A stretch of 64,000 nt of DNA from a virus. Its lineage: Duplodnaviria; Heunggongvirae; Uroviricota; Caudoviricetes. Below the pieces are notes generated by a model. It did no database searches, was not told the DNA's origin, and worked only from the letters and a program-made list of their open reading frames with translations. Both the position numbers and the translations under genes were made by a program. The stretch is taken from IMG/VR virus record IMGVR_UViG_3300020576_001727, positions 103,062 to 167,061 of that record. One strand, written 5' to 3'. Shown piece after piece: positions 26,235-41,237 of this stretch. Numbering within the stretch: the stretch's first letter is position 1; each line of letters opens with the position of its first letter.

Positions 26235-26235
26235 T

Positions 26236-28193: not shown

Positions 28194-28448
28194 ATGGCAA
28201 GATTTAACAGTGAAGATTATTCGACTCATGCCTTGATGGCAGAATTGAATCAGTATCTTGATATTATTGACGAAAAACCCGTTTCCTTTAGTAAAGATGA
28301 TATTGCTTTGGCTAAAAAGGTGAGAATGCAAATTCAAACCATGTCTTTCGCCAAGCTTTGCGGTATGTTGGGATTCTTTCAATCACTTTTCCATTACCAT
28401 AAGGATTTTAAGGGAAAGCAGATTTTTCATCACGATTGGGATAACTAG
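28194..28448 (+). CDS. hypothetical protein
   Basis: ORF track. Confidence 0.35.
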   Translation: MARFNSEDYSTHALMAELNQYLDIIDEKPVSFSKDDIALAKKVRMQIQTMSFAKLCGMLGFFQSLFHYHKDFKGKQIFHHDWDN

Positions 28449-28505
28449 TTGACAATCCCTAGAATCATGCTATGTTAAGGCAAGATCGAAACAGGAGATT
28501 TTGTC

Positions 28506-28883
28506 ATGGCTTATGTGTCGAAGGAAACCAAGGCGGCTGTTATGGTTGCTCTTGCTGCAACCGGCGCTAAGAAGGAAGGTTTTTCTTGGACGGTCGGCGT
28601 TCGCGACCACATGACCTTGCAAGTCAAGATTTGGAAGTATCCGACTTGGTTCAAGCTGAATCAGAAGTGGAGCGAATACGACTCCGAATATGGAATTGAT
28701 CTGAACACGTATCATCCTCATATGTATTTCGATGATACGCCGGAAGGGCAGAAGTCGCTTGAATGGATTAAGAAGTTCATCGCGGCAATGAACACTGGCA
28801 ATTGGGACAAGTCGGACGTGATGACTGATTATTTCAATGTTGGGTTTTTCGTGTCATTAAGGTTGTTTCCTAATAAGAAATGA
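28506..28883 (+). CDS. hypothetical protein
   Basis: ORF track; promoter TTGACA at 28449. Confidence 0.4.
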   Translation: MAYVSKETKAAVMVALAATGAKKEGFSWTVGVRDHMTLQVKIWKYPTWFKLNQKWSEYDSEYGIDLNTYHPHMYFDDTPEGQKSLEWIKKFIAAMNTGNWDKSDVMTDYFNVGFFVSLRLFPNKK

Positions 28884-29498
28884 TTTACAATTTTCGTTAT
28901 GAAAACGAGATAATATGTTTGCGGCGACCGATTTATCACAATATTTACATTTAATTTTGGGTTTCGGTCTCCCTTTTTGTTTTGTGCTAGAAGCAATTTT
29001 GATTTTTTCGATAGTTTCTGGCGAATGTGTCTTTCCATAAAATGGATTTTTTTCACCTATACATTTACCTTTTCTGTTTTGTGATATTAGTAATTTAGAT
29101 TCTTCTGTGTGGGGCTTTCTTTTTATGCCTAATTTGGAGAGACTCATATTTCTTCTGGTTTTTTCTGAAAAAGGTTTTCTCTTTCTGCCGATATATGAAA
29201 TGGATAATTCTTTTTTTAATTGTTCGTATTGACGTGCCGTAATTTTAATTTTATTTTTACGCATAGTAAATTGCCAAGCCGCATATGCAAGTTTTTCTTT
29301 ATATGGAGCATCGACCATTCTTATCAGAAGCAGATGGCATAAAAAGTGTTGACGGGCAGATAAACGTATGATATTATTGTCATCGTTAGAACCTCCCATG
29401 CATTTTGGAATAATATGATGATTTTCAACATATATGTCATTTTGGGGTTTTGAAATTATATCAAAATACCATTTGGTATATTTGTTATCTTTAAACAT
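28857..29498 (-). CDS. HNH homing endonuclease with NUMOD3 repeats
   Basis: NHHIIPKCMGGSNDDNNIIRL; repeated GRKRKPFSEKT/GIKRKPHTEES. Confidence 0.65.
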   Translation of the reverse strand: MFKDNKYTKWYFDIISKPQNDIYVENHHIIPKCMGGSNDDNNIIRLSARQHFLCHLLLIRMVDAPYKEKLAYAAWQFTMRKNKIKITARQYEQLKKELSISYIGRKRKPFSEKTRRNMSLSKLGIKRKPHTEESKLLISQNRKGKCIGEKNPFYGKTHSPETIEKIKIASSTKQKGRPKPKIKCKYCDKSVAANILSRFHNENCKSFLIRKQP

Positions 29499-29554
29499 TA
29501 GGGAATCCTCCTAATGAGTATATATGAAATTTTAATGTTGGAAGGTATGTGAAA

Positions 29555-29650
29555 ATGGCACATGAACGAAAAAATCGCCCGCGAAAGGGAAGACGTAAGG
29601 TCGGCTCTGCCAAGCGTCTTGCTCGACGCAAGCGCAAACAGAGAAAGTGA
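29555..29650 (+). CDS. 31-aa highly basic peptide (MAHERKNRPRKGRRKVGSAKRLARRKRKQRK)
   Basis: RBS ggaagg 6 nt upstream; 17 of 31 residues R/K. Confidence 0.35.
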   Translation: MAHERKNRPRKGRRKVGSAKRLARRKRKQRK

Positions 29651-29694
29651 CGAATCGATTCATATCGTTACATATTTCGACTAAATAAGAAACA

Positions 29695-29775
29695 TGCCTC
29701 TGTATCAGTCCCGGCTTCGAACCGGTCGTTAAAGCTGTAATGGAGTATGGGGGTTCGAATCCCTTCAGGGGCACC
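29695..29775 (+). tRNA. noncanonical tRNA-like, anticodon-like loop UCG (Arg), canonical acceptor/T-arm, apparent D-arm missing/rearranged
   Basis: acceptor gcctctg/caggggc, hairpin ccgg-cttcgaa-ccgg, T-arm gggggttcgaatccctt, CCA; paralog at 29995. Confidence 0.4.
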
Positions 29776-29780
29776 AATTT

Positions 29781-29855
29781 TGCTTTGTAAGCATTGACGG
29801 TGATGCAGGAGTTTCGTAAACTTCAGAGGATGGTTCGATCCCGTCACAAAGCACC
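29781..29855 (+). tRNA. tRNA-Thr (CGU)
   Basis: acceptor gctttgt/acaaagc, D-stem gcat/atgc, AC stem ggagt/acttc loop ttcgtaa, CCA. Confidence 0.5.
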
Positions 29856-29912
29856 AAATTTTTCTTGACAACGTTCAAAAACACATATATACTAAACCAG
29901 AATTAGAAATTT

Positions 29913-29987
29913 GCGGGTATAACTCAAAGGTAGAGTGTCAGCCTTCCAAGCTGTATGTTGTCGGTTCGAGTCCGATTGCCCGCTCCA
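29913..29987 (+). tRNA. tRNA-Gly (UCC), second copy
   Basis: acceptor gcgggta/tgcccgc, D-stem actc/gagt, loop cttccaa, T-loop ttcgagt, CCA. Confidence 0.5.
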
Positions 29988-29994
29988 GTTTAAT

Positions 29995-30075
29995 GCTTCC
30001 GTATCGCCACCGGCTTCTACCCGGTCGTTAACAGCGTAATGGAGTATGGGGGTTCGAGTCCCTCCGGGAGCACCA
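29995..30075 (+). tRNA. noncanonical tRNA-like, anticodon-like loop UCU (Arg), paralog of 29695
   Basis: acceptor gcttccg/cgggagc covaries with paralog; hairpin accgg-cttctac-ccggt. Confidence 0.4.
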
Positions 30076-30084
30076 GAATTTATA

Positions 30085-30159
30085 GGAATAGTGCCGGAAC
30101 GGTAACGGGACGATCTGCAAAATCGTTTTTAACGGGTTCGACTCCCGTCTATTCCTCCA
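30085..30159 (+). tRNA. tRNA-Cys (GCA)
   Basis: perfect acceptor ggaatag/ctattcc, AC stem acgat/atcgt loop ctgcaaa, T-loop ttcgact, CCA. Confidence 0.55.
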
Positions 30160-30171
30160 AAATTAGAAATT

Positions 30172-30244
30172 GGCTTTGTGGCGGAATTGGCAACGCGGGC
30201 ACCTGCAAAGTGACCAGATTCAGGTTCAAGTCCTGACAAAGCCT
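30172..30244 (+). tRNA. tRNA-like, loop ctgcaaa (GCA) with weak AC stem; no encoded CCA
   Basis: acceptor ggctttg/caaagcc, T-arm tcaggttcaagtcctga. Confidence 0.4.
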
Positions 30245-30263
30245 CAAATTATTTAAGTTTAAT

Positions 30264-30337
30264 ACCCGTATGGTGTAATGGTAGCACAAGAGCCTCCAAA
30301 ACTTTTAGTCTCGATTCGATTTCGGGTGCGGGTGCCA
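30264..30337 (+). tRNA. tRNA-Trp (CCA)
   Basis: acceptor acccgta/tgcgggt, D-arm gtgtaatggtagcac, loop ctccaaa, CCA. Confidence 0.5.
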
Positions 30338-30343
30338 ATAAAT

Positions 30344-30432
30344 GGAAAGTAAAGCAGCCGGGGTGCTGCCGGGGCTTGCTAAGCCTTGGGTGCTGAAATA
30401 TGCATGGGAGTCGGAATCTCTGCTTTCCGCCA
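30344..30432 (+). tRNA. type II tRNA-Ser (GCU)
   Basis: 89 nt; acceptor ggaaagt/gctttcc; AC loop ttgctaa; variable arm hairpin; CCA; T-loop tcggaat noncanonical. Confidence 0.5.
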
Positions 30433-30440
30433 GATTTAAT

Positions 30441-30529
30441 GGAAAATGAACCGGACAGGCGAGCCGGAACCGCCTTGAAAGCGGATTGTCCCGAAAGGGA
30501 TGGATTTCGAGTATGCCCGTCTTCCGCCA
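30441..30529 (+). tRNA. type II tRNA-Ser (UGA)
   Basis: 89 nt; acceptor ggaaaat/gtcttcc (A6-U67 covaries with G6-C67 of paralogs); AC ccgc-cttgaaa-gcgg; variable arm tccc-gaaa-ggga. Confidence 0.45.
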
Positions 30530-30534
30530 TTCAT

Positions 30535-30622
30535 GGAAAGTAAACCGGTTGGGAACCGGACACGTTTCGAAAACGTTGTGACCCGGTAACGGGTTATGGA
30601 TCGATACCATTGCTTTCCTCCA
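30535..30622 (+). tRNA. type II tRNA-Ser (CGA)
   Basis: 88 nt; acceptor ggaaagt/gctttcc; AC loop ttcgaaa; variable arm acccg-gtaa-cgggt; CCA. Confidence 0.5.
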
Positions 30623-30627
30623 TTCAT

Positions 30628-30698
30628 GCCCATGTAGTATAAAGGTATTACGGCGCTTTGGTAAAGCGTAAAATCAGGATCGTTCCCTGACTTGGGCT
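30628..30698 (+). tRNA. tRNA-Thr (GGU), no encoded CCA, one acceptor mismatch
   Basis: D-stem gta/tac, AC stem gcgct/agcgt loop ttggtaa, T-arm tcagg-atcgttc-cctga. Confidence 0.4.
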
Positions 30699-30702
30699 CA
30701 TT

Positions 30703-30749
30703 GAAATCCTAGAATCCATAAATAATAGTAAACTGGATTCTAGGATTTC
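30703..30749 (+). promoter_or_regulatory. 16-bp perfect stem hairpin (gaaatcctagaatcca / tggattctaggatttc, 15-nt loop) immediately upstream of GIY-YIG gene
   Basis: read directly. Confidence 0.55.
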
Positions 30750-30754
30750 CTTAT

Positions 30755-31357
30755 TTGCTATACACGATCTATAAAATTACGAATAATATTAACGGTAAAA
30801 TTTATATTGGTAAACATCAAACTAAAAATTTAGATGATGGGTATTTTGGTTCTGGTAAAAATCTAAAACGTGCGATATCGAAATACGGTATAGAGAACTT
30901 TAACAAAGAAATTCTTTATGTATTCGACAACGAGTCGGATATGAATGTTAAGGAACGTGAATTAGTAACCGAAGAATTTTGTAAACGTCTAGATACCTAC
31001 AATATTTGTGAAGGTGGTAAAGGCGGATTTGGTTATATAAATTCGATTGTATCAAATGAAGATAAATCTAGGTTTGGAAAATTTGGCGCGCAAAAATATG
31101 TCGAACGTTTAAAATCAGACAAAAATTTTGCAGATTTGAGAATTTCTTCTTTCAAAGAAAGTATTCAAAAGTTAAGAGACTCTGGTTGGAAATCGTCCGA
31201 ATCTCATATGAAGTTGATGACTGAAAAAGCAGCCGAAAAAACACGTAACATGATATGGATTACAGACGGTGTTGCTAATAAAAAAATACTAAAAACTAAT
31301 AAAATTCCTCCAAATTTTTATAGAGGAAGAATTGTAAATAAACGTCAATCGTCATGA
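30755..31357 (+). CDS. GIY-YIG homing endonuclease (TTG start)
   Basis: [22 protein letters not shown]...YFGSG...NxE. Confidence 0.65.
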
Positions 31358-31361
31358 AAGG

Positions 31362-31577
31362 ATGACTATGCGTAACGATTTGATTATAATTGGACTTGCA
31401 TTCTTTGCGGTGTTTGTATTTCCAGTTCCCGCTATGATTTCGGCGGCAAGCACTGTAATGGTTTTGCTAGGAATTGGTATCGTCCTTCTAGGAGGATATG
31501 CGGCTTGGACTTCTGGAATGAAGATTTTCAAGAAGTTTCTGAACAATGATGTTGATAACAATGGAGAAAATGGATGA
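31362..31577 (+). CDS. small two-TM membrane protein
   Basis: two hydrophobic helices; overlaps start of SPFH gene. Confidence 0.45.
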   Translation: MTMRNDLIIIGLAFFAVFVFPVPAMISAASTVMVLLGIGIVLLGGYAAWTSGMKIFKKFLNNDVDNNGENG

Positions 31578-32446
31578 TTCGTAAGATTATGATTGCTGGA
31601 ATGCTCGGAATTTCCTTGCTTTCCTTGGCTGGTTGCGGAAAAGTTCCGGCTGGTAACGTGGGTGTCAAGGTCTATCTGCTAGGTGGCAGCAAGGGTGTTG
31701 ACAGTGAAGTTCTAACTCCCGGGCGCTATTTCATCGGCTGGAATGAAGACCTTTATTTGTTCCCTACGTTCACTCAAAACTATGTTTGGACCAAGGATTC
31801 AAGACCCGGTTCCGAGACAGACGAATCATTTACTTTCCAAACAAAGGAAGGCATGGCGGTAACAGCCGATATCGGTATCAGCTATGCAATTCGTCCAGAA
31901 AGTGTCAGCACGATCTTTCAGAAGTATCGTCGCGGGGTGGATGAAATCACAGATACTTTCTTGCGCAACATGGTAAGAGACGCCTTGGTTGTCGAAGCCT
32001 CGAAACTTCCAATCGAGTCGGTTTATGGTGCTGGTAAGGAAGATTTGATCAAGTCGGTTGAAAATCGCGTCAAATCGCAAGTCAATGAACTTGGTATCAA
32101 CATTGAGCGCATTTATTGGATTAATAGTCTTGAACTTCCTCCGGAAGTCGTCGGATTGATCAATGCTAAGATTGGTGCAACTCAAAAGACTCAACAGCGC
32201 CAGAATGAAATCGAGCAAGTCAAGGCTGAAGCTCAAAAGGCAATTGAAGAAGCGCGCGGTCTTGCTGAATCGGTCAAGCTAAGAGCGCAAGCCGAAGCAG
32301 AAGCCAACCGGATCATTAATCAGTCTTTGACCGATGACTTGGTTCGTTATAAGGCTTTGGAAAAATGGGATGGCGTATTGCCTCGTATGACGGGCGGCGG
32401 TGCAGTTCCTTTCATTGATGTAGAAAAAACCATTTCCAATCAATGA
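31574..32446 (+). CDS. SPFH/band-7 (prohibitin-like) domain lipoprotein
   Basis: lipobox LLSLAGCG; band-7 like core; C-terminal coiled-coil AQAEAEANRI. Confidence 0.55.
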   Translation: MIRKIMIAGMLGISLLSLAGCGKVPAGNVGVKVYLLGGSKGVDSEVLTPGRYFIGWNEDLYLFPTFTQNYVWTKDSRPGSETDESFTFQTKEGMAVTADIGISYAIRPESVSTIFQKYRRGVDEITDTFLRNMVRDALVVEASKLPIESVYGAGKEDLIKSVENRVKSQVNELGINIERIYWINSLELPPEVVGLINAKIGATQKTQQRQNEIEQVKAEAQKAIEEARGLAESVKLRAQAEAEANRIINQSLTDDLVRYKALEKWDGVLPRMTGGGAVPFIDVEKTISNQ

Positions 32447-32481
32447 ATTAAGAAAAAAATTAGTCGAATCGAAAAAAGTGG

Positions 32482-32510
32482 TTGACATTCGTTTCCGGTT
32501 CGACTAAATT
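32482..32510 (+). promoter_or_regulatory. promoter TTGACA-N17-TAAATT
   Basis: read directly. Confidence 0.5.
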
Positions 32511-32641
32511 AAGAGCATAGAGATTGAAGGGAAGCCGGTGGGTTTCCAGTTCTTTGAAAATTGAAGCGAAAGAAAAGAGGCGTGTCCCGCGCGTGAGTCC
32601 GGTTTACCGGACAGGGAATGAGTTAATCATCCAAAGATTTT

Positions 32642-33196
32642 TTGTTGACAACATCAAATGTCACATATATAGTAACACAGAATATGAAACTCTGCGAAAC
32701 TTGTCATAATCAACATGATGGTAATTTTGGTTCCGGAAGATTTTGTTGCAAAAAATGCGCTTGTTCATATAGCACCAAAAATTCTAGACATGAGATTAAT
32801 CAGAAGGTCAAAAATGCTTTAATTGGTCGAAAAGCTTCGATTGAAACGATAGACAAGATGAAAGAATCTTGGAAATCGAGAAAATCAAGCAATTCCTATT
32901 ATAGGCGTTCGCAAACGAATATTGAAGATATTTGTGTAGTCGATTCTATCTATACTACTAAATATGTTAAAGAAAGATTATTTCGCGACAATCTAAAAAA
33001 ATATGAATGTGAAGAATGTGGATTATATGAGTGGCGAAATAAGCCAATAACATTACAACTTCATCACAGAAATGGTAAAAATAAAGATCATAGATTAGAA
33101 AATCTGCAAATCTTATGTCCAATGTGTCATTCTCAAACGGACAATTATGCAGGAAGAAATAGAAGGCTTCGTATTTTAACTGGAAAGATGCATTGA
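32642..33196 (+). CDS. HNH homing endonuclease
   Basis: LQLHHRNGKNKDHRLENLQILCPMCH; N-terminal Zn ribbons; own promoter TTGACA-N17-TATAGT upstream. Confidence 0.65.
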   Translation: MLTTSNVTYIVTQNMKLCETCHNQHDGNFGSGRFCCKKCACSYSTKNSRHEINQKVKNALIGRKASIETIDKMKESWKSRKSSNSYYRRSQTNIEDICVVDSIYTTKYVKERLFRDNLKKYECEECGLYEWRNKPITLQLHHRNGKNKDHRLENLQILCPMCHSQTDNYAGRNRRLRILTGKMH

Positions 33197-33241
33197 CTAC
33201 GAATCAATGAGGTAAAGGTTCGAATCCTTTCGAAGTCGCCA
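33195..33241 (+). pseudogene. tRNA 3' fragment / minihelix (acceptor + T-arm + CCA, no D or anticodon arm) abutting HNH stop codon
   Basis: gactacg..aaaggttcgaatccttt cgaagtc g cca. Confidence 0.4.
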
Positions 33242-33244
33242 ATA

Positions 33245-33319
33245 CAGGGTGTAAGAGATAAGATCATCGGTCGGTTTTGGAAACCGGCTAAGCTGGAGCG
33301 TTACCAGCCATCCTGACCA
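33245..33319 (+). tRNA. tRNA-Pro (UGG), weak D-stem, noncanonical T-loop
   Basis: acceptor cagggtg/catcctg, AC stem gtcggt/accggc loop tttggaa, CCA. Confidence 0.45.
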
Positions 33320-33401
33320 ATTCTCTCTTAAGTGTTGGCGCACGAAAGAGAGATAAGCAAAGCCCGAAAAAGCAAATCACGCCAATGATTTGTGAGTAAC
33401 G

Positions 33402-33470
33402 AGTCATATCGTCTAGGGCGGAAGGACGCCCCTGTTGAAGGGGGAAACGTGGGTTCGAATCCCATTATGT
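33402..33470 (+). tRNA. tRNA-like (D-arm cgtc/gacg, T-arm gtgggttcgaatcccat) whose acceptor halves do not pair; possible pseudo-tRNA
   Basis: hand fold. Confidence 0.3.
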
Positions 33471-33862
33471 TTAGCTTTGCTTTAAAATTTCGGATTAAGT
33501 TCCCGTCAACGCACACTAGCGACGTTAACTTTGGGTGCCGTGTTTTGTTGCTTCCTCCCGTTAAGAAAGCAATCCTTTTGATTATTTTCGGCGAAAAATA
33601 ATCGGTCATGCGTGAGTGTCTACAATTCTTACGCCGTATGGTAGCACGGATGCACCATGTCAATGCCAGTCAGACATACCCAAAAATGTGATATAATTGG
33701 AAAAAAATATCAATCTGGCAACCTATTAAATGCTTGATTTGACTATAAAATCAGGTATAATACAGTAAACAGGAACGATGAATCAGATAGTTTTCGTCCT
33801 ATCGTTCAAAGCGTCGTAAAGTCCGCCCGGTCTGTTCAAAACGGTGGCGGGTTAGAATTTAT

Positions 33863-33940
33863 TCCTCAGAGGCGAGCAAGGTGCACGCGGCGGTCTGTTA
33901 AACCGAGTTAAGGCAGGTTCGATTCCTGCTTGGGGAGCCA
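33863..33940 (+). tRNA. tRNA-Asn (GUU), U1-A72
   Basis: acceptor tcctcag/ttgggga with wobbles, AC loop ctgttaa, T-arm gcaggttcgattcctgc, CCA. Confidence 0.45.
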
Positions 33941-34138
33941 AAATAAGTTATTGACAAGCTTGAAGAAATTCGCTAGGATATGTCAATAATAGGAACCGGA
34001 AGTGGGGTATCAAATCCTCGATCCCGCCCAACAAATTCAAGCATGGCCAACGCTATGTGATGATCGGATCGCTACCGACGAATTTGTATTATCGGGATTT
34101 GGTGTAAGAAAGCACGCCGGACGAATTTTTTGAATAAT

Positions 34139-34212
34139 GCGGGTATCGTATAACGGAATTATGCGACGTTGCCAACGTTGAGAAGTCGGATCGTCCCCGA
34201 CTACCCGCACCA
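34139..34212 (+). tRNA. tRNA-Gly (GCC)
   Basis: perfect acceptor gcgggta/tacccgc, AC stem cgacg/cgttg loop ttgccaa, CCA. Confidence 0.55.
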
Positions 34213-34275
34213 AGAATGAGCCTTTGGAAACGATCACTGTGCTTTGACACAAATCCCCAAGGGACGTGAATAAAT

Positions 34276-34350
34276 GGCGCATTAGTTTAGTGGCTAGAAT
34301 CCTCGGCTTTCAACCGGGAGGAAGGGGATCGAAACCCCTATGCGCTACCA
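34276..34350 (+). tRNA. tRNA-Glu (UUC)
   Basis: acceptor ggcgcat/atgcgct, loop ctttcaa, T-arm aggggatcgaaacccct, CCA. Confidence 0.55.
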
Positions 34351-34377
34351 AATTGGAATAGAAATATTCCTACGTTT

Positions 34378-34452
34378 TGCGGGGTAGAGAAGCAGCATCT
34401 CGCCACTCTCATAAAGTGGAAATCATCGGTGCGAGTCCGGTCCCCGCAACCA
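34378..34452 (+). tRNA. tRNA with CAU anticodon (Met/fMet/Ile2)
   Basis: D-stem gaga/tctc, AC stem ccact/agtgg loop ctcataa, CCA. Confidence 0.55.
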
Positions 34453-34504
34453 ATAATACGTTATAAGGTAAAGTTCGGATGGCTGACTTAAGCAGCGTAA
34501 AACC

Positions 34505-34918
34505 TTAAGAATTTCGTAAATTATAATGTAGTTTACGATGACAGTTTGAACAAAGAATATCACATTTTTCGATTTCTTTCTTGATACGATCAAGCGATAT
34601 TCCGTTTCTAGATAATCTGGCAATTGACTGTTCTTTTTGATTAGGATCACGATGATGAAAATCAAGTGCTGCAATGTGATTTTCTGGACATTGACTGCAT
34701 GATTTATCAGAAAGATATTGCAATACATATTCTCTGTTACGATTGTATATGTTTTTGACGTTTTTGCGAACACGTTTGCGTTCATCAGAATTATTTTTAT
34801 ATTTTTCTCTATTATGAGTTCGAATACATTCTTTACACCAAGAATTAAGTTTTCCGTTTGTCTTGGGTGAAAATTGATTTTCCTCTTTTAGAGATTGACA
34901 TTTAGAACAAATTTTCAT
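34505..34918 (-). CDS. HNH homing endonuclease
   Basis: CSQCPENHIAALDFHHRDPNQKE...CSNCHRKLH. Confidence 0.65.
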   Translation of the reverse strand: MKICSKCQSLKEENQFSPKTNGKLNSWCKECIRTHNREKYKNNSDERKRVRKNVKNIYNRNREYVLQYLSDKSCSQCPENHIAALDFHHRDPNQKEQSIARLSRNGISLDRIKKEIEKCDILCSNCHRKLHYNLRNS

Positions 34919-34962
34919 AGATTTAGATATCCTTTTAATTTCTAAATCTATTTATGATTATT

Positions 34963-35040
34963 GCCCGACTGACGAAAATGGAAGCCGTGTCAGACTTAGA
35001 ATCTGAATTTTTGGGGGTTCGACTCCCCCGTTGGGCACCA
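34963..35040 (+). tRNA. tRNA, anticodon UAG (Leu-like, short variable arm)
   Basis: acceptor gcccgac/gttgggc, AC stem tcaga/tctga loop cttagaa, T-arm gggggttcgactccccc, CCA. Confidence 0.5.
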
Positions 35041-35047
35041 AATTAAT

Positions 35048-35122
35048 GCCGGTATAGTGCTAATGGTAACACGCCTGTTTGTGGAGCAGGAATCAAAGGA
35101 TCGATACCTTTTGCCGGTGCCA
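35048..35122 (+). tRNA. tRNA-His (GUG)
   Basis: acceptor gccggta/tgccggt, AC stem cctgt/gcagg loop ttgtgga, CCA. Confidence 0.5.
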
Positions 35123-35343
35123 TTTAGACTTTAGGGCGCGCGGAATGCCGTTGCTTCCCTAATGTCTAGACCCAAAGATTATGGGCGATTGGGTCTATAA
35201 ATATAAGGCTTGTTGAAAGACAAGAATTCGTCGCGGTCATGCTCTTTGAGTTCATTCCGTAAAGGTTGGACACTCCTTTCAAAAGTGCTATCGAGGGTTT
35301 AGGTGATTTTCCCGCGTAAGCAAAAAATCATACCAGTTTTAAT

Positions 35344-35417
35344 GGTCCCTTGATGTAATGGTAGCATACCACTCTGTCTAAGTGAGAGCAGCGGATCGTA
35401 ACCGCTAGGGATCGCCA
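35344..35417 (+). tRNA. tRNA-Asp (GUC)
   Basis: acceptor ggtccct/agggatc, D-stem atgt/gcat, loop ctgtcta, CCA. Confidence 0.45.
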
Positions 35418-35560
35418 ATGAGAACGCACAGCCCGAATGCCTAATTATGGTCAAGACTGTGGTTCAATAGTCCGGTGGCTACCTTTGCCCGTAAGGGTGT
35501 GGAACCAACCACTTAATAGTTAGACGACTGAACGGTGTCGGCAAACCCGGAAGTTGGGTG

Positions 35561-35585
35561 GAAATCCCAACAACTTTTTAAAAAG
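35561..35585 (+). terminator. rho-independent terminator gttggg-tggaaat-cccaac + T-run
   Basis: read directly. Confidence 0.5.
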
Positions 35586-35649
35586 TCTCTTGACAATCTT
35601 TCGGTCAAGAGATAATATATACATAACATGAACGAAAGGAATTAATCAG

Positions 35650-35745
35650 ATGGCGTGGGTAAAAGAAACGGTTCCTTATACTCCCGAATCTTTTGGAATG
35701 GCAATAGCTATTGCCATTTTGATGATCGAATATCTGATTTTCTAG
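35650..35745 (+). CDS. 31-aa hydrophobic peptide (MAWVKETVPYTPESFGMAIAIAILMIEYLIF)
   Basis: TTGACA-N17-TAATAT promoter within 9-bp inverted repeat upstream; RBS aagga. Confidence 0.35.
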   Translation: MAWVKETVPYTPESFGMAIAIAILMIEYLIF

Positions 35746-35748
35746 TGT

Positions 35749-35824
35749 CAGAAACAAGCCTTGGTAGGCTAACTTGTCTCATAAGCAAGCCAAATTGTGA
35801 GTTCGATTCTCACTTCCGCAACCA
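35749..35824 (+). tRNA. tRNA-like with CAU anticodon arm and canonical T-arm, acceptor not pairing as drawn
   Basis: D-arm agcc-ttggta-ggct, AC cttgt-ctcataa-gcaag, T gtgagttcgattctcac, ...cca. Confidence 0.35.
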
Positions 35825-35973
35825 AAGTGGGTGACGCTGCGAAATTGCGAAAGTAACAGCGAAAATTCCCGAATAGGCAAAAACCGAAATCCTAAGCGCG
35901 CTCAAGATGGTCGGTTTGGTTGACAAGCGGGGTTAAGTTTCTTAGCGGGGGCTATGTCAACATTTGAATTCAT

Positions 35974-36049
35974 GGCAGTATGGGGTAGCTGGTGCGCCCG
36001 TCCGTCTCATAAGCGGAAAGAACCTGATCGTAACAGGTTACTGCTACCA
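35974..36049 (+). tRNA. tRNA with CAU anticodon (third copy)
   Basis: acceptor ggcagta/tactgct, D-stem gggt/gccc, AC tccgt-ctcataa-gcgga, CCA. Confidence 0.55.
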
Positions 36050-36058
36050 ATTAATTTA

Positions 36059-36105
36059 GTGCCAAACGGACACGTTGAAAGAACTCTGTTTGGTTTATTT
36101 TATGG
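36059..36105 (+). terminator. hairpin ccaaac...gtttgg followed by tttatttt
   Basis: read directly. Confidence 0.4.
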
Positions 36106-36194
36106 GGAGTGCAAATAAGGGTTGCTGGTGCAGCCGCCGAGTTGTAGCCTCGGTCCTTAATGGCAGGAGATTCGATTTCGTCCATTCCCCACCA
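36104..36194 (+). tRNA. type II tRNA-Tyr (GUA)
   Basis: 88 nt, acceptor ggggagt/attcccc, AC ccgag-ttgtagc-ctcgg, variable arm, CCA. Confidence 0.45.
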
Positions 36195-36202
36195 ATAAAT
36201 AT

Positions 36203-36276
36203 GTCCTCATAGCTTAGTGGCAAAGCGGGCGCTTGATAGGCGTTTGACCTTAGTTCGATTCTAGGTGGGGACACCA
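36203..36276 (+). tRNA. tRNA-Ile (GAU)
   Basis: acceptor gtcctca/tggggac, D-stem gctt/aagc, loop ttgatag, CCA. Confidence 0.5.
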
Positions 36277-36291
36277 ATTCAAGATTGCTGA

Positions 36292-36981
36292 TTGATGTAT
36301 TTTACCATCTATAAAATAACGAATAAAATCAATGGTAAAACTTATATCGGAAAGCATCAAACCGAAAATTTAAACGATGGTTACTTCGGTTCCGGTAATG
36401 GAATAAAATACGCCATTGCTAAATATGGCAAGGATAACTTTGTCAAAGAAATTCTTCATGTTTTTGACAATGAATCCGATATGAACGCTAAAGAAGCTGA
36501 ATTAGTTACCGAAGAATTTTGTAAACGTTTGGATACTTATAACATCATGACCGGTGGTTATGGAGATTTTAATTTCATAACTCCTGAAGAAAGAACAAAA
36601 AATGCTAAAAAGGGTATATCTTGTTTGAATAAAAAATTGGATTCGGACCCAATGTTCCGACAACAATTTTATAAAAAACGAACTGAAGCAATCAGAAATG
36701 TCGATTGGTCATCAATCAATTTGATTGGAAGAACTCATACAAAAATATCCAAAGATAAAATGAGGGAAAAGGCTCTTGGTAGAAAACGTTCCGAATTGTC
36801 TATAAAATTTCAGAAAATAAATTCATTAGGTGAAAAAAATTCTCAATATGGGACTCGTTGGTCTTGGATTACAGATGGCCAAACGAACAAAAAAGTGCCA
36901 TATTTAGAGGATAAGGATATTCCAGAAGGCTGGAAAAGAGGAAGAAGTCGGACAGGACAACTAGTGGAGTCGTTCGCTTGA
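36292..36981 (+). CDS. GIY-YIG homing endonuclease
   Basis: YFTIYKITNKINGKTYIGKHQT; paralog of 30755 gene. Confidence 0.65.
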   Translation: MMYFTIYKITNKINGKTYIGKHQTENLNDGYFGSGNGIKYAIAKYGKDNFVKEILHVFDNESDMNAKEAELVTEEFCKRLDTYNIMTGGYGDFNFITPEERTKNAKKGISCLNKKLDSDPMFRQQFYKKRTEAIRNVDWSSINLIGRTHTKISKDKMREKALGRKRSELSIKFQKINSLGEKNSQYGTRWSWITDGQTNKKVPYLEDKDIPEGWKRGRSRTGQLVESFA

Positions 36982-37023
36982 CATGCGAAAGATGGTAGGC
37001 GCGAAACCTACGTTCGACACCAT
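36969..37023 (+). pseudogene. tRNA 3'-fragment-like element (T-arm-like hairpin + acceptor-like + ACCA) overlapping GIY-YIG stop
   Basis: gtagg-cgcgaaa-cctac gttcgac a cca. Confidence 0.3.
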
Positions 37024-37030
37024 TTAGAAG

Positions 37031-37059
37031 TTGACATGGAGAGTAAAATTAGGTATATT
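37031..37059 (+). promoter_or_regulatory. promoter TTGACA-N17-TATATT
   Basis: read directly. Confidence 0.5.
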
Positions 37060-37169
37060 GAATCATCGAAATCTATGAAGGTTGGTGATATGATTTGCCA
37101 GATTGGTTTTTATGTATCTGTCGCTTTTATTATATGTATCATTTTGGGAATTATGTGAAAGGATTTGAA

Positions 37170-37310
37170 ATGGCTTGGTATTTGTATGGTATTGGCGCTG
37201 CTTTGATATCAATTTCGATTGGTTTGGCGGCTGGTTTCGTTCCTTTTCTTGCTGCATTAGGATTTTCGGCACTTGTCGCCGGTTTTCTTCATGCGATTAT
37301 AAATAGTTAA
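37170..37310 (+). CDS. 46-aa small membrane protein
   Basis: RBS aaagga; single long hydrophobic stretch. Confidence 0.4.
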   Translation: MAWYLYGIGAALISISIGLAAGFVPFLAALGFSALVAGFLHAIINS

Positions 37311-37313
37311 TTT

Positions 37314-37388
37314 GGGCTGTTGGTGATAATGGGAGCATCCCGCACTTGCAATGCGGGGGAGACGGATCGTAACCGTCACAGTCCACCA
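37314..37388 (+). tRNA. tRNA-Ala (UGC)
   Basis: acceptor gggctgt/acagtcc (G3-U70), AC ccgca-cttgcaa-tgcgg, CCA. Confidence 0.55.
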
Positions 37389-37395
37389 AGTTTAA

Positions 37396-37468
37396 TGCGG
37401 GGTAGTAGAAGTTAGAACGCCGGTCTTTGAAACCGGAGATACTGGTTCAAGTCCAGTCCGCGCAGCCA
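37396..37468 (+). tRNA. tRNA-Gln (UUG), U1-A72
   Basis: AC ccggt-ctttgaa-accgg, T-arm actggttcaagtccagt, CCA. Confidence 0.5.
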
Positions 37469-37479
37469 ATTTTAACAAT

Positions 37480-37570
37480 GGTTCCATAGCATAAAGGTAA
37501 TGCGCCGAGCTTATACCTCGTTACTCCTGATTAGAGGGTGATACAGGTTCGAATCCTGTTGGAACTACCA
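37480..37570 (+). tRNA. type II-length tRNA (88 nt), anticodon candidate UAU; identity uncertain
   Basis: acceptor ggttcca/tggaact, D-stem gcat/atgc, 21-nt variable arm, T-arm acaggttcgaatcctgt, CCA then T9 run. Confidence 0.45.
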
Positions 37571-37585
37571 ATTTTTTTTTATTTT

Positions 37586-37978
37586 ATGTTGTTGATAGAA
37601 GAATATATTAAAAAATCAATAGAAGATCGCCAAAAACATCTAGATTTACAATCTGAATGTGATGAAAGGGGCGGATTTTCTTCTTATTATAAAGGATTAA
37701 TGGCATATTATCTTGACACAACAATTCCTTCCGGAAATCGTATTTTAGTTTGTCATGCTTGCCATAATTCAAAATGTAGTAATCCAAAACATTTATATTT
37801 TGGAACACCAAAAGAAAATGTAGCAGATATGAAATCTGTAGGTAATTTTAAAAATGCGTGGCAAGCTAAAGTTGATAAATATGGTCATGATGAAGCACTT
37901 AAAATGGTCCGAGAACATTTGAATAAAGTAAGATATCTAGGAACCATAGCTTCGCCAGTAACTAAAAAAAGAAAATAA
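37586..37978 (+). CDS. HNH (His-Me finger) endonuclease
   Basis: ILVCHACHNSKCSNPKHLYFGTPKEN. Confidence 0.55.
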   Translation: MLLIEEYIKKSIEDRQKHLDLQSECDERGGFSSYYKGLMAYYLDTTIPSGNRILVCHACHNSKCSNPKHLYFGTPKENVADMKSVGNFKNAWQAKVDKYGHDEALKMVREHLNKVRYLGTIASPVTKKRK

Positions 37979-37985
37979 ATTTTAT

Positions 37986-38060
37986 TCCCCGTTCGTCTAA
38001 CGGTAGGACCACACGCTTTGAACGTGTCCAATGGAGGTTCGAATCCTTCGCGGGGAGCCA
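37986..38060 (+). tRNA. tRNA-Gln (UUG) second copy
   Basis: D-arm gtctaacggtaggac, AC acacg-ctttgaa-cgtgt, CCA. Confidence 0.5.
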
Positions 38061-38068
38061 AATCATGT

Positions 38069-38142
38069 TTCCGAGTCGTCTAGTGGTAGGACGTTTCTCT
38101 CTGAAAGAAAAGACGGTTGTTCGAATCAACCCTTGGAAGCCA
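38069..38142 (+). tRNA. tRNA-Gln (CUG)
   Basis: acceptor ttccgag/cttggaa, AC tttct-ctctgaa-agaaa, T-arm ggttgttcgaatcaacc, CCA. Confidence 0.5.
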
Positions 38143-38292
38143 AATTTAGAAAGAATTTGTAATGAACGAAATCAATTTGACAGGTAATTGGCAAAAAACC
38201 CCTTGGTATTTCACTCTGTTTGGCTTTTCTGCCAAACGTCGCAAAATTCATCACTCCAAAAATCCAGAACTTTATGTATGGGAATATCAGTA

Positions 38293-38700
38293 ATGGCATA
38301 TAGACTTTACATCATCATGCGAACTGATATGGCTTCAATGAACGCTGGTAAGGCGATGGCACATGCTGCACATGCCGCCAATGATTTCGAAGACAGAATT
38401 CAAAAATACATCAAGAAACATGATGAAGATGAATGGCTTGTCAATCGTTATCTAGACTGGAAAGAAGATCGTTCGTTTGGAACGACTCTTGTTTTTGGCG
38501 GAAAAGAAAATGATATCATGACCGTAACAGGATCACATTTCGAAGATGGTATGTCCGGTCTTGTGATCGATCCTACTTATCCAATTCGTGATGGTGAAAT
38601 CGTTCATCATATCAGTATCATGACTTGTGGTTGGGTCTTCTGTGATGAAGACGAGTGGAAATCCAATCCAAACGCGGCTTCTCTGTCGCTTCATCCTTAG
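38293..38700 (+). CDS. peptidyl-tRNA hydrolase, Pth2 family-like
   Basis: IIMRTDMASMNAGKAMAHAAHAAND resembles Pth2 motif (RTDL.MGKGK.AAQ..HA). Confidence 0.45.
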   Translation: MAYRLYIIMRTDMASMNAGKAMAHAAHAANDFEDRIQKYIKKHDEDEWLVNRYLDWKEDRSFGTTLVFGGKENDIMTVTGSHFEDGMSGLVIDPTYPIRDGEIVHHISIMTCGWVFCDEDEWKSNPNAASLSLHP

Positions 38701-38711
38701 TTCAAAAAATC

Positions 38712-38785
38712 GCCCCTATCGTCTAGTGGTAGGACATTAGATTCTCAATCTAAAGGTGTCGGATCGTAACCGACTAGGGGAACCA
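38712..38785 (+). tRNA. tRNA-Glu (CUC), G1-A72 mismatch
   Basis: D-arm gtctagtggtaggac, AC ttaga-ttctcaa-tctaa, CCA. Confidence 0.45.
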
Positions 38786-38828
38786 TTTCTCTCTTGACAT
38801 TTCCTTTCGCTTCCATTAAGTTATTAGT

Positions 38829-39278
38829 ATGACAAAGATTGAAGATCATATTCGAACCGAAATCGAAATGTGGGCAAAGGTCGGGCATCCTGCATTGATG
38901 CAGAAGTTCATTCTTAACGAAGGTCGCCTTTTCGAAAATCCGGTTGCCGCCAAGAAGTTTGGCAAGCAGAAGGAATGCTTCAAGAATGCATTCCATTATG
39001 CGCAAGATGAAGAAGTTGAATATGTAGAAGGTTATATTCTTTTGCCAAACATTCCAATTCTCATTCATCATGCTTGGTGCTGCGAATTTGGCGATACCGT
39101 TCCGATTGAAACCACGATCAAGGATTTCGAGGGAATTCAGTATTTTGGTTTTGAATTCGATTATGAAACCGTCGTCGCCTATTTGATCAAGCATGGTGTT
39201 TATGGCATCATTGATCCGGGTTTTGGTCTGAACATCGATTTGTTCAAGAGATATGGAATGGAGATATCGGATGGCTAA
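38829..39278 (+). CDS. hypothetical protein
   Basis: ORF track; TTGACA promoter at 38785. Confidence 0.4.
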   Translation: MTKIEDHIRTEIEMWAKVGHPALMQKFILNEGRLFENPVAAKKFGKQKECFKNAFHYAQDEEVEYVEGYILLPNIPILIHHAWCCEFGDTVPIETTIKDFEGIQYFGFEFDYETVVAYLIKHGVYGIIDPGFGLNIDLFKRYGMEISDG

Positions 39279-39495
39279 GTTTCGAGTTCTTTATCGTGAA
39301 TCTGAACGTGGGTGGGGAACCAAGCTTTTCTCTGGCGTTGAACGCGATTATTTGGCAGAAGCACAAGCAGAATTTTCCAAGTGTAATGCTGAAAATTTTG
39401 CCGATTATGCCAAGACCGCACAAGTTCCCGATTACTATATTCAGCCGGAAGGCATTGAAACCCTTGTCGAAGGTAAATGGATAAGGTATTCGTGA
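39253..39495 (+). CDS. hypothetical protein
   Basis: ORF track. Confidence 0.35.
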   Translation: MEWRYRMAKFRVLYRESERGWGTKLFSGVERDYLAEAQAEFSKCNAENFADYAKTAQVPDYYIQPEGIETLVEGKWIRYS

Positions 39496-39671
39496 TGTTA
39501 CATAAATTGAAAGAATATGCGGTTGATAGAGAATTGATCGCAAAAGCCGCTTTAGATAAAAATCTAAGTGAACAGTCTTTTCGACTCCTTTGCACCTTAC
39601 AAAAAGGTGAAATAACAAAAGAAGTTCAAGATTGGGTGGATTTCGTCATTTTGTCAATTACCAAAGGATGA
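39477..39671 (+). CDS. hypothetical protein
   Basis: ORF track. Confidence 0.3.
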   Translation: MDKVFVMLHKLKEYAVDRELIAKAALDKNLSEQSFRLLCTLQKGEITKEVQDWVDFVILSITKG

Positions 39672-39675
39672 TAAT

Positions 39676-39864
39676 ATGCATCTGATCATTGGAGCATATC
39701 TATTCCTTGGCGGAATCTATTCGGCTTGGTCGCTCAAATGGACCAAAAAGAATTTTGAACAGTTCAAGGATTATTTCTGGCATGTGGTTCTCACAACCTT
39801 CCTTTGGCCATTGTTTGCCTTCAAGGATGGTATCTTGAAACTCTATGACATGGTGTTTGGATAA
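39676..39864 (+). CDS. small membrane protein
   Basis: hydrophobic, W-rich. Confidence 0.35.
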   Translation: MHLIIGAYLFLGGIYSAWSLKWTKKNFEQFKDYFWHVVLTTFLWPLFAFKDGILKLYDMVFG

Positions 39865-40256
39865 TGGCATATTGGATTCCGAAAAAAGATTGGGCTGAAT
39901 GGATAGAAACCCACCAAAAAATGTCTGATTTTTTTGGTATTAAAAAACCATTTCGAGAAGCATCGAAAAGCTTAAAAGATATTGTCCTGTTTTTTGAAGA
40001 GAATTCTTTTCAAGATAATAAATTTACAAAACAGACGATTGGTTACAATTGGTTGTATTGGGCGATAGAATCAATTTATGAAATGCTTTCTAAAGAGAAA
40101 GAATCATATGATAAGCTGGTTGATCGACTCGATTCGATGTCTGGATGGCTGAATTCCAAGGAAAATCAACAGGTTTTGGAAGCCAAGGTAAAGAGTCTGG
40201 AATCCACGGTCGAACGTCTCGAAAAAAAGTTGGCACAATTCGAAAAAAGCGATTGA
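39864..40256 (+). CDS. hypothetical protein with C-terminal coiled coil
   Basis: ORF track. Confidence 0.4.
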   Translation: MAYWIPKKDWAEWIETHQKMSDFFGIKKPFREASKSLKDIVLFFEENSFQDNKFTKQTIGYNWLYWAIESIYEMLSKEKESYDKLVDRLDSMSGWLNSKENQQVLEAKVKSLESTVERLEKKLAQFEKSD

Positions 40257-40348
40257 CTTGGGAACCGAAACGTCCTATATTAAGTTTGTAAGCAGGAAAG
40301 AGAAAACAGCGGAGACAAAAAAAATGTAACCGAACCTCAAAAAAACTC

Positions 40349-40377
40349 TTGACAAAGAGAGATAGATAGAGTAGAAT
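40349..40377 (+). promoter_or_regulatory. promoter TTGACA-N17-TAGAAT facing ORF-free region
   Basis: read directly. Confidence 0.5.
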
Positions 40378-41167
40378 TTAAAAATAGAAACGATCTAGAC
40401 AAGAGAGTAAAGCAATGGCTAGAGACTCGCCCTAGAAAGTAACTTAAAGCCTCAAAGAGGCAACTTAGATAGAGATATTAGATATAGTATGTTAAAATGA
40501 AACTTGGTTTACCGATGGAGCGAAGTTGGGCAATGTCAATAAGTCCCGCCAGCATAGAAGTCGGACCAACGAGAGAAGAACGTTAACTCGCTAAATCAAC
40601 GTGACAGTCCGGAGAGACGGACACTTTAATTCAATGAAAACAAGAACAGTCCTGTCCTGAAAATAGCTCTAAGACATGATAATATTGGATATCTGCTTGT
40701 TTTCATTTAATTAAAGATTGGCGTGTATGGCGTCGTCAGAATAAGGTTGGCAACAACCCCAACGGGAAAAATCTCACGATATCCCACCTAGCAATAGGGT
40801 CAACCATGCAAGCCTCCCCGGTCTGGTAACAGATGTTTCGCTGATAAGAGCGGCGGAACGAACGAGGAAGCCGATGTAGTGGAAAGAACCTTCGTTTAAG
40901 CGCCCGCAAGGGAAACGCAAGCGAAGGGAAAGTAACGGGTGGTGCCGACTTCACTACAAAACCAATCGGTCATTCGGGACGGGAAAGGGTAGGGTATTTG
41001 TCCGAGTCTTACAAACAAGGGCTTATATCCAGTCTGATAGGTCGGTGGTAACGAAACGCTGGTCTTGAAAGACCGCTAAGTAGTCGGTAGACAAAAGGCA
41101 TGAAGGCGTGTTGTATTTTGGTTCCCAAAAGGAATTGAAGCAACAGGGGCAGCACGTCTCGGTGAGT

Positions 41168-41237
41168 TAGCAAGTAGCTCAATGGTAGGGCAATCGCATT
41201 TGAAGCGATGACTGTTGGTTCAATTCCAACCTTCATA
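41168..41237 (+). tRNA. tRNA-like element (UUG anticodon arm atcgc-atttgaa-gcgat, T-arm gttggttcaattccaac) without pairing acceptor
   Basis: hand fold. Confidence 0.3.

Follow-up and report, generated by a model that had tools for sequence, protein, structure and literature searches.

Homing endonuclease genes ending inside complete tRNA genes in the tRNA array of an uncultured freshwater phage

Endonuclease genes lodged among the transfer RNA (tRNA) genes of phages have been described in T4 and T5, and these are the closest known counterparts of the two genes reported here. SegB of T4 makes site-specific double-strand cuts in tRNA genes at the T-arm motif GGTTCRANTCC and drives the co-conversion of the tRNA region; cleavage of the segB messenger RNA (mRNA) during the maturation of tRNA-Arg has been proposed, as has occlusion of its start by a hairpin (PMC2330249). 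In T5, the F-Tfl enzymes are HNH endonucleases coded in the tRNA cluster, for which it was proposed that processing of the tRNA transcript limits expression (PMC2330249). SegB is strongly associated with tRNA genes and displays no preference for isotype (PMC13096335). The presence of SegB in tRNA clusters, its recognition of the T arm, the co-conversion of tRNAs and the association with tRNA genes are thus already published (PMC2330249; PMC13096335), while neither recurrent stop codons supplied by tRNAs nor an HNH subfamily tied to tRNA-Arg(ACG) was found in these two papers; both details are modest. The stretch of DNA that was analyzed, hereafter the window, comprises 64,000 nucleotides (nt) of the IMG/VR record IMGVR_UViG_3300020576_001727 (positions 103,062 to 167,061), a virus of the Caudoviricetes. 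It very probably carries two free-standing homing endonuclease genes, one of the HNH and one of the GIY-YIG type, in spacers of its tRNA array, each located directly 5′ of a complete tRNA gene whose start it overlaps.

Two endonuclease genes and the complete tRNAs in which they end

The tRNA array contains about 40 tRNA genes at 21–41 kb of the window, as identified by ARAGORN, at default settings and relaxed at -ps90, and by Rfam RF00005 with its cut-off of 29 bits. The features of the HNH site are as follows.

32645..32673, + strand: sigma-70-like promoter (TTGACA, 17 nt, TATAGT; 11 of 12 consensus positions)
32684..33196, + strand: HNH homing endonuclease gene, 170 amino acids (PHROG 10822, E 5.7e-25; PHROG 14736, E 1.2e-23)
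33165..33241, + strand: complete tRNA-Arg(ACG), 77 nt, with encoded CCA (ARAGORN default; Rfam 47.4 bits)
33245..33319, + strand: tRNA-Pro(TGG), T loop AGCGTTA (ARAGORN)

The true start of the HNH gene is the ATG at 32684, and a gene with exactly this product is called in Logan contigs; this ATG is located 10 nt downstream of the −10 box of the promoter. The N-terminal module of the protein is CxxC...GSGRFC...C and its C-terminal module is of the HNH type, and residues H127, H128, N130, N140, C145, C148 and H149 are invariant in 16 aligned sequences, together with the Cys pairs; the Pfam HNH profile alone gave 17.5 bits, under its cut-off of 21.4. The homologs found in cultured phages (Yersinia fHe-Yen9-04 and Streptomyces Cursive) were too distant to be informative.

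The tRNA-Arg matches RF00005 at 33165–33238 over model positions 1–71, that is, over its full length. Its T loop, TTCGAAT, contains the canonical U54-U55-C56, and its D stem, UUUU/AAGA with the loop AACUGGA, is compensated with respect to the GCUC/GAGC of the orthologs; across the five HNH-linked orthologs, compensatory changes are seen in 14 of the 21 pairs. Nucleotides 1–32 of this tRNA are inside the HNH open reading frame (ORF), whose stop codon, TGA at 33194–33196, falls within the 5′ strand of the anticodon stem. The last ten residues of the protein, RLRILTGKMH, and the stop are thus encoded by the tRNA, namely by the 5′ strand of the acceptor stem, the D arm and half of the anticodon stem.

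The second site, located further along the array, has a similar organization.

36203..36276, + strand: tRNA-Ile(GAT), 18 nt 5′ of the GIY-YIG start (ARAGORN; Rfam 57.3 bits)
36295..36981, + strand: SegB-like GIY-YIG homing endonuclease gene, 228 amino acids (Pfam, PHROG, tblastn to segB)
36947..37022, + strand: complete tRNA-Val(GAC), 76 nt, with encoded CCA (ARAGORN -ps90; cloverleaf)

The N-terminal catalytic domain of the GIY-YIG protein is recognized by Pfam PF01541 GIY-YIG (24.5 bits, cut-off 22.6), and the protein also matches PF19835 SegE_GIY-YIG (28.7 bits, cut-off 25) and PHROG 314 (E 3.2e-43). When compared by tblastn with RB55, a T4 strain, its best place was segB, with residues 1–217 of 228 aligned at 35.9% identity (95% of the query, E 4e-31). 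The exact gene is present on JGI and Logan contigs.

The tRNA-Val has a 7-bp (base pair) acceptor stem, a D arm, a 5-bp anticodon stem and a 5-bp T stem. Its nucleotides 1–35 lie inside the GIY-YIG ORF, to which it supplies the last 11 codons and the stop; this stop, TGA at 36979–36981, corresponds to U33-G34-A35 of the anticodon loop. A search with RF00005 at this tRNA gave no match at E ≤ 10, because its T loop is CGCGAAA, and it has neither the Rfam gathering score nor the U54-U55-C56 T loop of a canonical tRNA. Orthologs were identified in two syntenic relatives, L219 (11027–11102) and L216 (2818–2893). Across the three sequences, 12 of the 21 pairs changed on both sides and none is broken, while the anticodon GAC, U33, A37 and CCA are invariant.

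The HNH subfamily includes four further metagenomic loci (L044, L209, L212 and L214), whose proteins are 50–55% identical in their best local alignment. In all of them the HNH ORF runs into a tRNA-Arg(ACG), by 24 nt in L044, 51 nt in L209, 83 nt in L212, where it passes through the entire tRNA, and 32 nt in L214; frames and stops are not the same. At a sixth locus, L210, a degenerate tRNA-like sequence occupies the place where tRNA-Arg(ACG) sits elsewhere. The conserved part of the protein ends in both families just before the first nucleotide (+1) of the tRNA, at a distance of one or two codons in the window genes, with ...NYAGKNR in the HNH protein and ...GWKRGR in the GIY-YIG protein, while the tails of the homologs beyond this point vary in length and sequence, and several tails in both endonuclease families resemble translated tRNA. 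No stop is found before the tRNA; therefore, each ORF continues into the tRNA as far as the first stop in its frame. The conserved domain ends and variable tails, together with the different frames and stops of the HNH overlaps, indicate that the ORF tails are by-products.

Filled and empty sites and recurrence among relatives

Over at least 12 kb, the sequence of the window is the same as that of a 170-kb contig from a JGI metagenome (3300033119 Ga0364480_10126), and Logan contigs from SRR32380198 are also identical to the window; an exact-protein look-up with the ATG-start products gave matches only on contigs 100% identical to the window. No cultured phage with similarity at the DNA level was found, except inside the endonuclease genes. 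The window was compared with L219 (Logan SRR17591873), a syntenic relative with 80–98% nucleotide identity in most shared segments, dropping to only 72–75% in the matches between GIY-YIG paralogs and in the tRNA-Val/Ala stretch. L216 is more distant, with the same order of tRNAs as the window. An IMG/VR search with a downstream protein of 149 amino acids retrieved no relatives, and nothing was matched by the conserved promoter pattern from the spacer between tRNA-Asn and tRNA-Gly.

At the HNH site, the window can be aligned with L219 (6894–6941) through the promoter up to window position 32684 (48 bases, 93.75% identity); homology is lost beyond this point and restarts at 33320, directly after the CCA of tRNA-Pro, which thus forms the right end of the differing segment. 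Between the two junctions, the window has the HNH gene, tRNA-Arg and tRNA-Pro (635 nt), whereas L219 has 402 nt, comprising a tRNA-Arg(ACG)-like gene without a D arm, a 147-nt spacer, tRNA-Pro and about 90 nt more, and no HNH ORF. The tRNA-Arg(ACG)-like gene of L219 (6945–7023) is peculiar in its own right: 4 nt replace the D arm, and the variable region has a 20-nt insert that contains the D-loop-like AACTGGATGGAAGAT, while acceptor stem, anticodon arm, T arm and CCA are intact; its Rfam score, 29.0 bits, is exactly the cut-off. It could be a rearranged or an endonuclease-resistant allele. Directly 5′ of the HNH promoter, the window array also includes a gene of the SPFH/Band 7 family (31574–32446; Pfam E 4.5e-24), which is absent from L219. 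Relatives sought through this Band_7 gene in IMG/VR and JGI metagenomes had only 33–72% amino acid identity and non-syntenic tRNA regions.

At the GIY-YIG site, both L219 and L216 have tRNA-Ile(GAT), about 100 nt and tRNA-Val(GAC), with no ORF. The Ile(GAT) and Val(GAC) alleles of the window are diverged from those of L219 and L216, and perfect identity between the window and L219 is seen from the base after the Val CCA onwards, bar one extra T in L219 at the junction. The reverse case is also present, since L219 has a GIY-YIG gene inserted exactly at the start of what in the window is the tRNA-Met at 35974, where the window site is empty; the inserted ORF runs 22 nt into a diverged tRNA-Met. 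Such presence/absence differences with sharp junctions are the mark of mobile homing endonucleases, and the pattern is that expected for homing with co-conversion of the flanks, which experiments have demonstrated for SegB (PMC2330249).

The arrangement recurs in other phages. The survey covered the closest 80 GIY-YIG loci and the closest 80 HNH loci of IMG/VR, which after removal of duplicates were reduced to 56 and 73, respectively. tRNAs occur within 3 kb at all 80 GIY-YIG loci and at 77 of the 80 HNH loci. Among the non-redundant ORFs, the next same-strand tRNA is overlapped by 13 of 56 GIY-YIG ORFs, with 9 more ending 0–25 nt before it, and by 12 of 73 HNH ORFs, with 14 more ending at that distance. 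Of the 25 overlapping ORFs, 13 share the commonest overlap, 10 nt; the stop of 12 of them (8 GIY-YIG and 4 HNH) is a TAG at tRNA positions 8–10 (U8-A9-G10), and that of one GIY-YIG ORF is a TGA at this same place. A TAG case in L216 reads ...ATG CCT CTG TAG, where GCCTCTGTAG is the beginning of tRNA-Leu. A few overlapping relatives stop in the anticodon loop, as in the window, and most GIY-YIG relatives have a tRNA about 55–66 nt upstream. The fraction of HNH pairs that share the downstream anticodon is 0.23, 0.15, 0.12 and 0.06 as the protein identity band falls; among SegB-like pairs it is 0.02, with no rise with similarity, in agreement with the published absence of isotype preference (PMC13096335).

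How the overlaps may have arisen

From what is known of homing endonucleases and of SegB, the two enzymes would cut the DNA of the tRNA cluster in co-infecting phages without these genes, and repair would copy the endonuclease gene in along with the flanking tRNAs, a step for which experimental evidence exists in T4 SegB. The tRNA genes may act as homology arms during this repair, because they are the only well-conserved sequence between diverged phages; endonuclease genes placed tight against a tRNA would then be favored, as the gene stays linked to its arm. Since the HNH ATG is 10 nt past the −10 box of the promoter that in L219 serves tRNA-Arg, the HNH message would be the 5′ leader of a tRNA precursor, and a cut by ribonuclease P (RNase P) at tRNA +1 would take off the last codons and the stop of the endonuclease mRNA, thus limiting expression.

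Some points weigh against this proposal. The cleavage sites, the processing by RNase P and the expression of either tRNA in this phage are inferred. Tight packing against tRNAs is not special to endonucleases, as the ORF at 37095–37310 ends 3 nt before tRNA-Ala and the ORF at 38188–38700 ends 11 nt before tRNA-Glu; the overlaps could then be an unselected by-product of a compact array. The tRNA-Val fails the Rfam model and is without U54-U55, so that its role as a normal elongator tRNA is not certain. Finally, a recent HNH-Arg-Pro cassette shared by the window and L044 was considered and found to be unsupported: the tRNA alleles that flank the HNH gene are not especially similar in the two, with identities of 56–68%, no higher than those of unrelated copies.

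Among the alternatives, the one that survives best, and that we nevertheless tend to doubt, is that the overlap is in itself a selected regulatory device, in which RNase P cutting at +1 removes the last 10–11 codons and the stop to leave a non-stop mRNA, with endonuclease synthesis being inverse to tRNA maturation. The occurrence of overlaps in 25 of the 129 non-redundant loci and in all five tRNA-Arg(ACG)-linked HNH genes would agree with it, as would the distance of the HNH ATG from the tRNA promoter, the hairpins at GIY-YIG starts and the earlier proposal of such a mechanism for T4 segB and for the F-Tfl enzymes of T5 (PMC2330249). However, the length, the frame and the stop position of the overlap vary freely, as expected for an accident of tight insertion, and many relatives end 0–25 nt before the tRNA or further off. 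A wider version, which we consider unlikely, is that the overlap represents a widespread selected design of phage tRNA arrays, with a borrowed stop, typically U8-A9-G10 read as TAG, with tRNA maturation by RNase P destroying the message, and with HNH lineages tied to one isoacceptor and spreading with it. If this were true, these elements would be vehicles that move and diversify phage tRNA genes, including those with unusual T loops.

Still more improbable is that tRNA-Val(GAC) is a decaying pseudogene, damaged by the neighboring insertion, whose overlap would be of no consequence for translation. The failure of Rfam, the detection by ARAGORN only at the relaxed threshold and the lack of U54 and U55 in its T loop would be in line with decay; however, the endonuclease-free orthologs of L219 and L216 also have odd T loops (GGCGGAA and ATCGTAA, respectively), and the four stems have been kept through the 12 compensatory pairs along with the conserved anticodon, U33, A37 and CCA. 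Odd T loops are found in 16 of the 41 window tRNAs and are therefore a trait of the lineage rather than decay.

Last, the view that the tRNAs are 3′ halves, namely truncated or split genes left by endonuclease insertion or rearrangement with 5′ halves lost or elsewhere, deserves almost no credence and is refuted by the contiguous cloverleaves: what follows each stop is limited to the loop or 3′ strand of the anticodon arm, the T arm, the 3′ strand of the acceptor stem and CCA, and the array is clearly a place of endonuclease gene turnover, but the D arm and the 5′ strands of the acceptor and anticodon stems are contiguous with these parts in the ORF ends, tRNA-Arg is called at full length, and tRNA-Val forms a full cloverleaf that covaries in orthologs without an adjacent endonuclease gene.

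A preliminary description of this DNA had read the sequences at the HNH and GIY-YIG stops as an acceptor/T-arm minihelix devoid of D and anticodon arms and as a similar T-arm/acceptor/ACCA element, respectively, because just the sequence beyond the stop codons was considered. Both are complete tRNAs; the 5′ halves that it proposed to look for upstream of the ORFs are inside the ORF ends, and in neither tRNA is the 5′ half missing directly upstream, as it would be in a split or half gene. The three stretches to which it drew attention are indeed present where it placed them, and its general idea that endonucleases have invaded the tRNA cluster is right in view of the empty sites of L219, the sharp junctions and the diverged flanks, while the breaking of tRNAs into halves does not stand. 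A tempting misreading is thereby corrected, as no split or half tRNAs exist at these sites. The locus provides a natural example of homing endonuclease turnover in an array of about 40 tRNA genes, with both filled and empty sites in a close relative. The recurrent stops supplied by tRNAs and the attachment of one HNH subfamily to tRNA-Arg(ACG) bear on how the tRNA repertoires of phages get shuffled, and also on annotation, since programs that call genes or find tRNAs often drop one feature where two overlap.

The tRNA-Gly(GCC) spacer, the rest of the array and the known systems

The third stretch is found in the spacer upstream of tRNA-Gly(GCC), where it had been taken as a degenerate copy of the portion of this tRNA from the anticodon to the T arm (about 34040–34100). 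The spacer has the following organization.

33951..33979, + strand: promoter-like site (TTGACA, 17 nt, TAGGAT; 10 of 12 consensus positions), conserved in L219 and L216
34020..34099, + strand: putative structured leader, with a Y-shaped core at 34031–34087 (fold z = −2.15)
34098..34131, + strand: terminator-like hairpin and T run, between the putative leader and tRNA-Gly(GCC) (consensus scan)
34139..34212, + strand: tRNA-Gly(GCC), T loop ATCGTCC, the supposed parent of the copy (ARAGORN; Rfam 45.9 bits)

The core comprises a closing stem of 8 bp and two hairpins, one of 7 bp with a tetraloop and the other similar to a T arm (UCGG-AUCGCUA-CCGA), and it is nested in a longer helix. In L219 the core is identical, as the 7 differences in the 198-nt spacer are all outside 34031–34087; the nearest, at 34021, is in the outer helix. 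In the L216 spacer, the promoter and the outer helix are retained, as are a CCAA-GCUAUGUG motif and the U-rich tail, while the T-arm-like hairpin is gone and the inner part is absent or rearranged. The terminator tail, GACGAATT(T/A)TTT, is conserved in both relatives. Most probably, this element belongs to a putative structured leader or small RNA downstream of the promoter, which might have descended from a tRNA.

A decayed tandem duplicate of tRNA-Gly(GCC) without a D arm, left as a scar of recombination or amplification, appears rather unlikely. Positions 34046–34079 align to positions 33–63 of the tRNA, sharing GCCAACG, TCGGATCG and CCGAC, with a score of 22, whereas shuffling of the 57-nt element gave 12.1 ± 2.1 (P = 0.0005); when the whole spacer is compared with its own tRNA-Gly, P is 0.009. 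The T-arm-like hairpin has the ATCG-type loop of this lineage, segmental amplification of tRNAs driven by SegB has been documented (PMC13096335), and a second such case may be the stretch at 33828–33856, just 5′ of tRNA-Asn, which resembles the anticodon-to-T-arm part of its own tRNA (P = 0.004) and is not conserved in the relatives tested. In addition, two of 23 spacers, leaving aside one with a hidden tRNA-Ser, match their own tRNA best, compared with about 0.5 expected by chance. However, taking the best of the 41 tRNAs raises P to 0.07, other spacers score higher, tRNA-Glu(CTC) scores equal to tRNA-Gly(GCC), and a search of 151 nt with RF00005 at E ≤ 10 retrieved no tRNA. Moreover, the supposed anticodon arm forms a stem of 7 bp closed by a loop of 4 nt, and L216 is without the T-arm-like part, its spacer being unlike its own tRNA. 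The similarity noticed in the preliminary description therefore exists at a weak level, while its status as a duplicate does not follow, and homology appears not to be established by this alignment. The more general possibility that spacers are copies of their own downstream tRNA was also considered and rejected: 3 of 23 spacers match it best, but one of them is a hidden tRNA-Ser(UGA), and the spacers of relatives displayed no similarity to their own tRNAs.

Six endonuclease-type ORFs are found in 9 kb of the array, namely the two described above and the following four.

About 28857–29498, − strand: NUMOD3 protein
30755..31357, + strand: second SegB-like GIY-YIG gene, 55 nt 3′ of tRNA-Thr(GGT) (Pfam, PHROG)
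34505..34918, − strand: second HNH endonuclease gene, between tRNA-Met and tRNA-Leu(TAG) (PHROG 2255, E 1.6e-33)
37586..37978, + strand: His-Me finger endonuclease gene (Pfam zf-His_Me_endon, E 1.3e-4; PHROG 6254)

The second GIY-YIG and second HNH genes are also absent from L219, in which tRNA-Met and tRNA-Leu(TAG) are adjacent. The His-Me finger gene starts 16 nt past tRNA-Ile(TAT) and ends 7 nt short of tRNA-Gln(TTG). The 55-nt gap between tRNA-Thr(GGT) and the GIY-YIG gene at 30755 is filled by a perfect 16-bp hairpin (30703–30749; −23.9 kcal/mol, z = −6.4), which resembles the start-occluding hairpin described for T4 segB; a weaker hairpin covers the ATG of the GIY-YIG gene at 36295.

The 16 non-canonical T loops of the window tRNAs (21317–41238) compare with about 13% in other endonuclease-bearing phage arrays. 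Eight tRNAs have loops with A54 and U58, a swapped 54-58 pair (ATCGTAA, ATCGTCC, ATCGTTC, AGCGTTA), and the other forms are ATCGATA, ATCGAAA, GGCGGAA and CGCGAAA. No clear excess of non-canonical T loops was seen beside endonuclease genes: at the 56 non-redundant GIY-YIG loci, T loops are canonical in 79% of downstream tRNAs, 90% of upstream tRNAs and 87% of the other tRNAs. The proposal that odd T loops shield the tRNAs beside SegB-like genes from T-arm cleavage was thus left unsupported, there being no clear effect of position.

Several tRNAs of the array are unusual or nearly escaped detection. The tRNA at 33402–33473 (Rfam 38.1 bits) has a 6-nt anticodon loop, GTTGAA, and ARAGORN assigns no anticodon to it; its L219 ortholog (7426–7497) is a normal tRNA-Gln(TTG) with the loop CTTTGAA. 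Three sub-threshold tRNAs, all present in L219, were called by ARAGORN at -ps90 only: Asp(GTC) at 35344–35417, Met(CAT) at 35748–35820 and Tyr(GTA) at about 36104–36194, the latter with a perfect 7-bp acceptor stem (GGGGAGT/ATTCCCC) only on allowing about 8 extra nt between the acceptor stem and the D arm. The hidden tRNA-Ser(UGA), at about 30441–30531 between tRNA-Ser(GCT) and tRNA-Ser(CGA), is likely complete and was missed by both ARAGORN and Rfam; it aligns to tRNA-Ser(CGA) over 67 positions, has a CCA end and has a counterpart, tRNA-Ser(TGA), at the matching place of L219. A short stretch at 35259–35283 is similar to the T-arm region of tRNA-Arg(ACG) (21 identical bases of 25) and is not conserved in the relatives tested. 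The end of the array is occupied by a GOLLD RNA (41103–41562, + strand; RF02032, 214.6 bits, full length), about 82% identical in L219, in which tRNA-Gln(TTG) is embedded at 41168–41238. Six promoter-like sites with a perfect TTGACA and 17-nt spacing, at 32482, 32645, 33951, 34895, 35590 and 37031 (+), are all on the tRNA strand, and suggest that the array may be transcribed as many short units and not as one long precursor.

The known systems include the endonucleases of group I introns in bacterial and phage tRNA genes, with which this locus shares a mobile endonuclease gene physically tied to a tRNA gene; unlike these, the window has no intron, as the tRNA is uninterrupted and the ORF is upstream, overlapping its 5′ half. 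The spacer element has no sequence or Rfam relationship to the T4 species I/II RNAs (rnaC and rnaD), which are stable non-tRNA transcripts annotated in RB55, as rnaD and rnaC, directly after tRNA-Arg; however, it would be, as a putative RNA, likewise a structured non-tRNA stretch in a tRNA cluster. The T5 enzymes can be likened to the HNH gene by description, both being HNH-type ORFs among phage tRNA genes (PMC2330249), whereas the window protein carries a Cys-rich N-terminal module of its own, and the proteins nearest to it are linked to the gene of a single isoacceptor, tRNA-Arg(ACG).

T4 SegB differs from the window GIY-YIG gene in that the latter has no stop of its own, extends 35 nt into the tRNA and has an upstream gap of just 18 nt, and the adjacent tRNA-Val is without the GGTTCRANTCC T-arm motif that SegB recognizes. 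However, the window gene is a full-length homolog of SegB. Both are free-standing ORFs that take up the space between neighboring tRNA genes, both are present or absent among relatives with diverged flanking tRNAs (PMC2330249), and both reach the 5′ border of the tRNA that follows: in T4/RB55 the order is tRNA, 41 nt, segB, 5 nt and tRNA-Arg, and a Karamvirus homolog is separated by 55 nt from the preceding tRNA-His and by 4 nt from the following tRNA-Ser.

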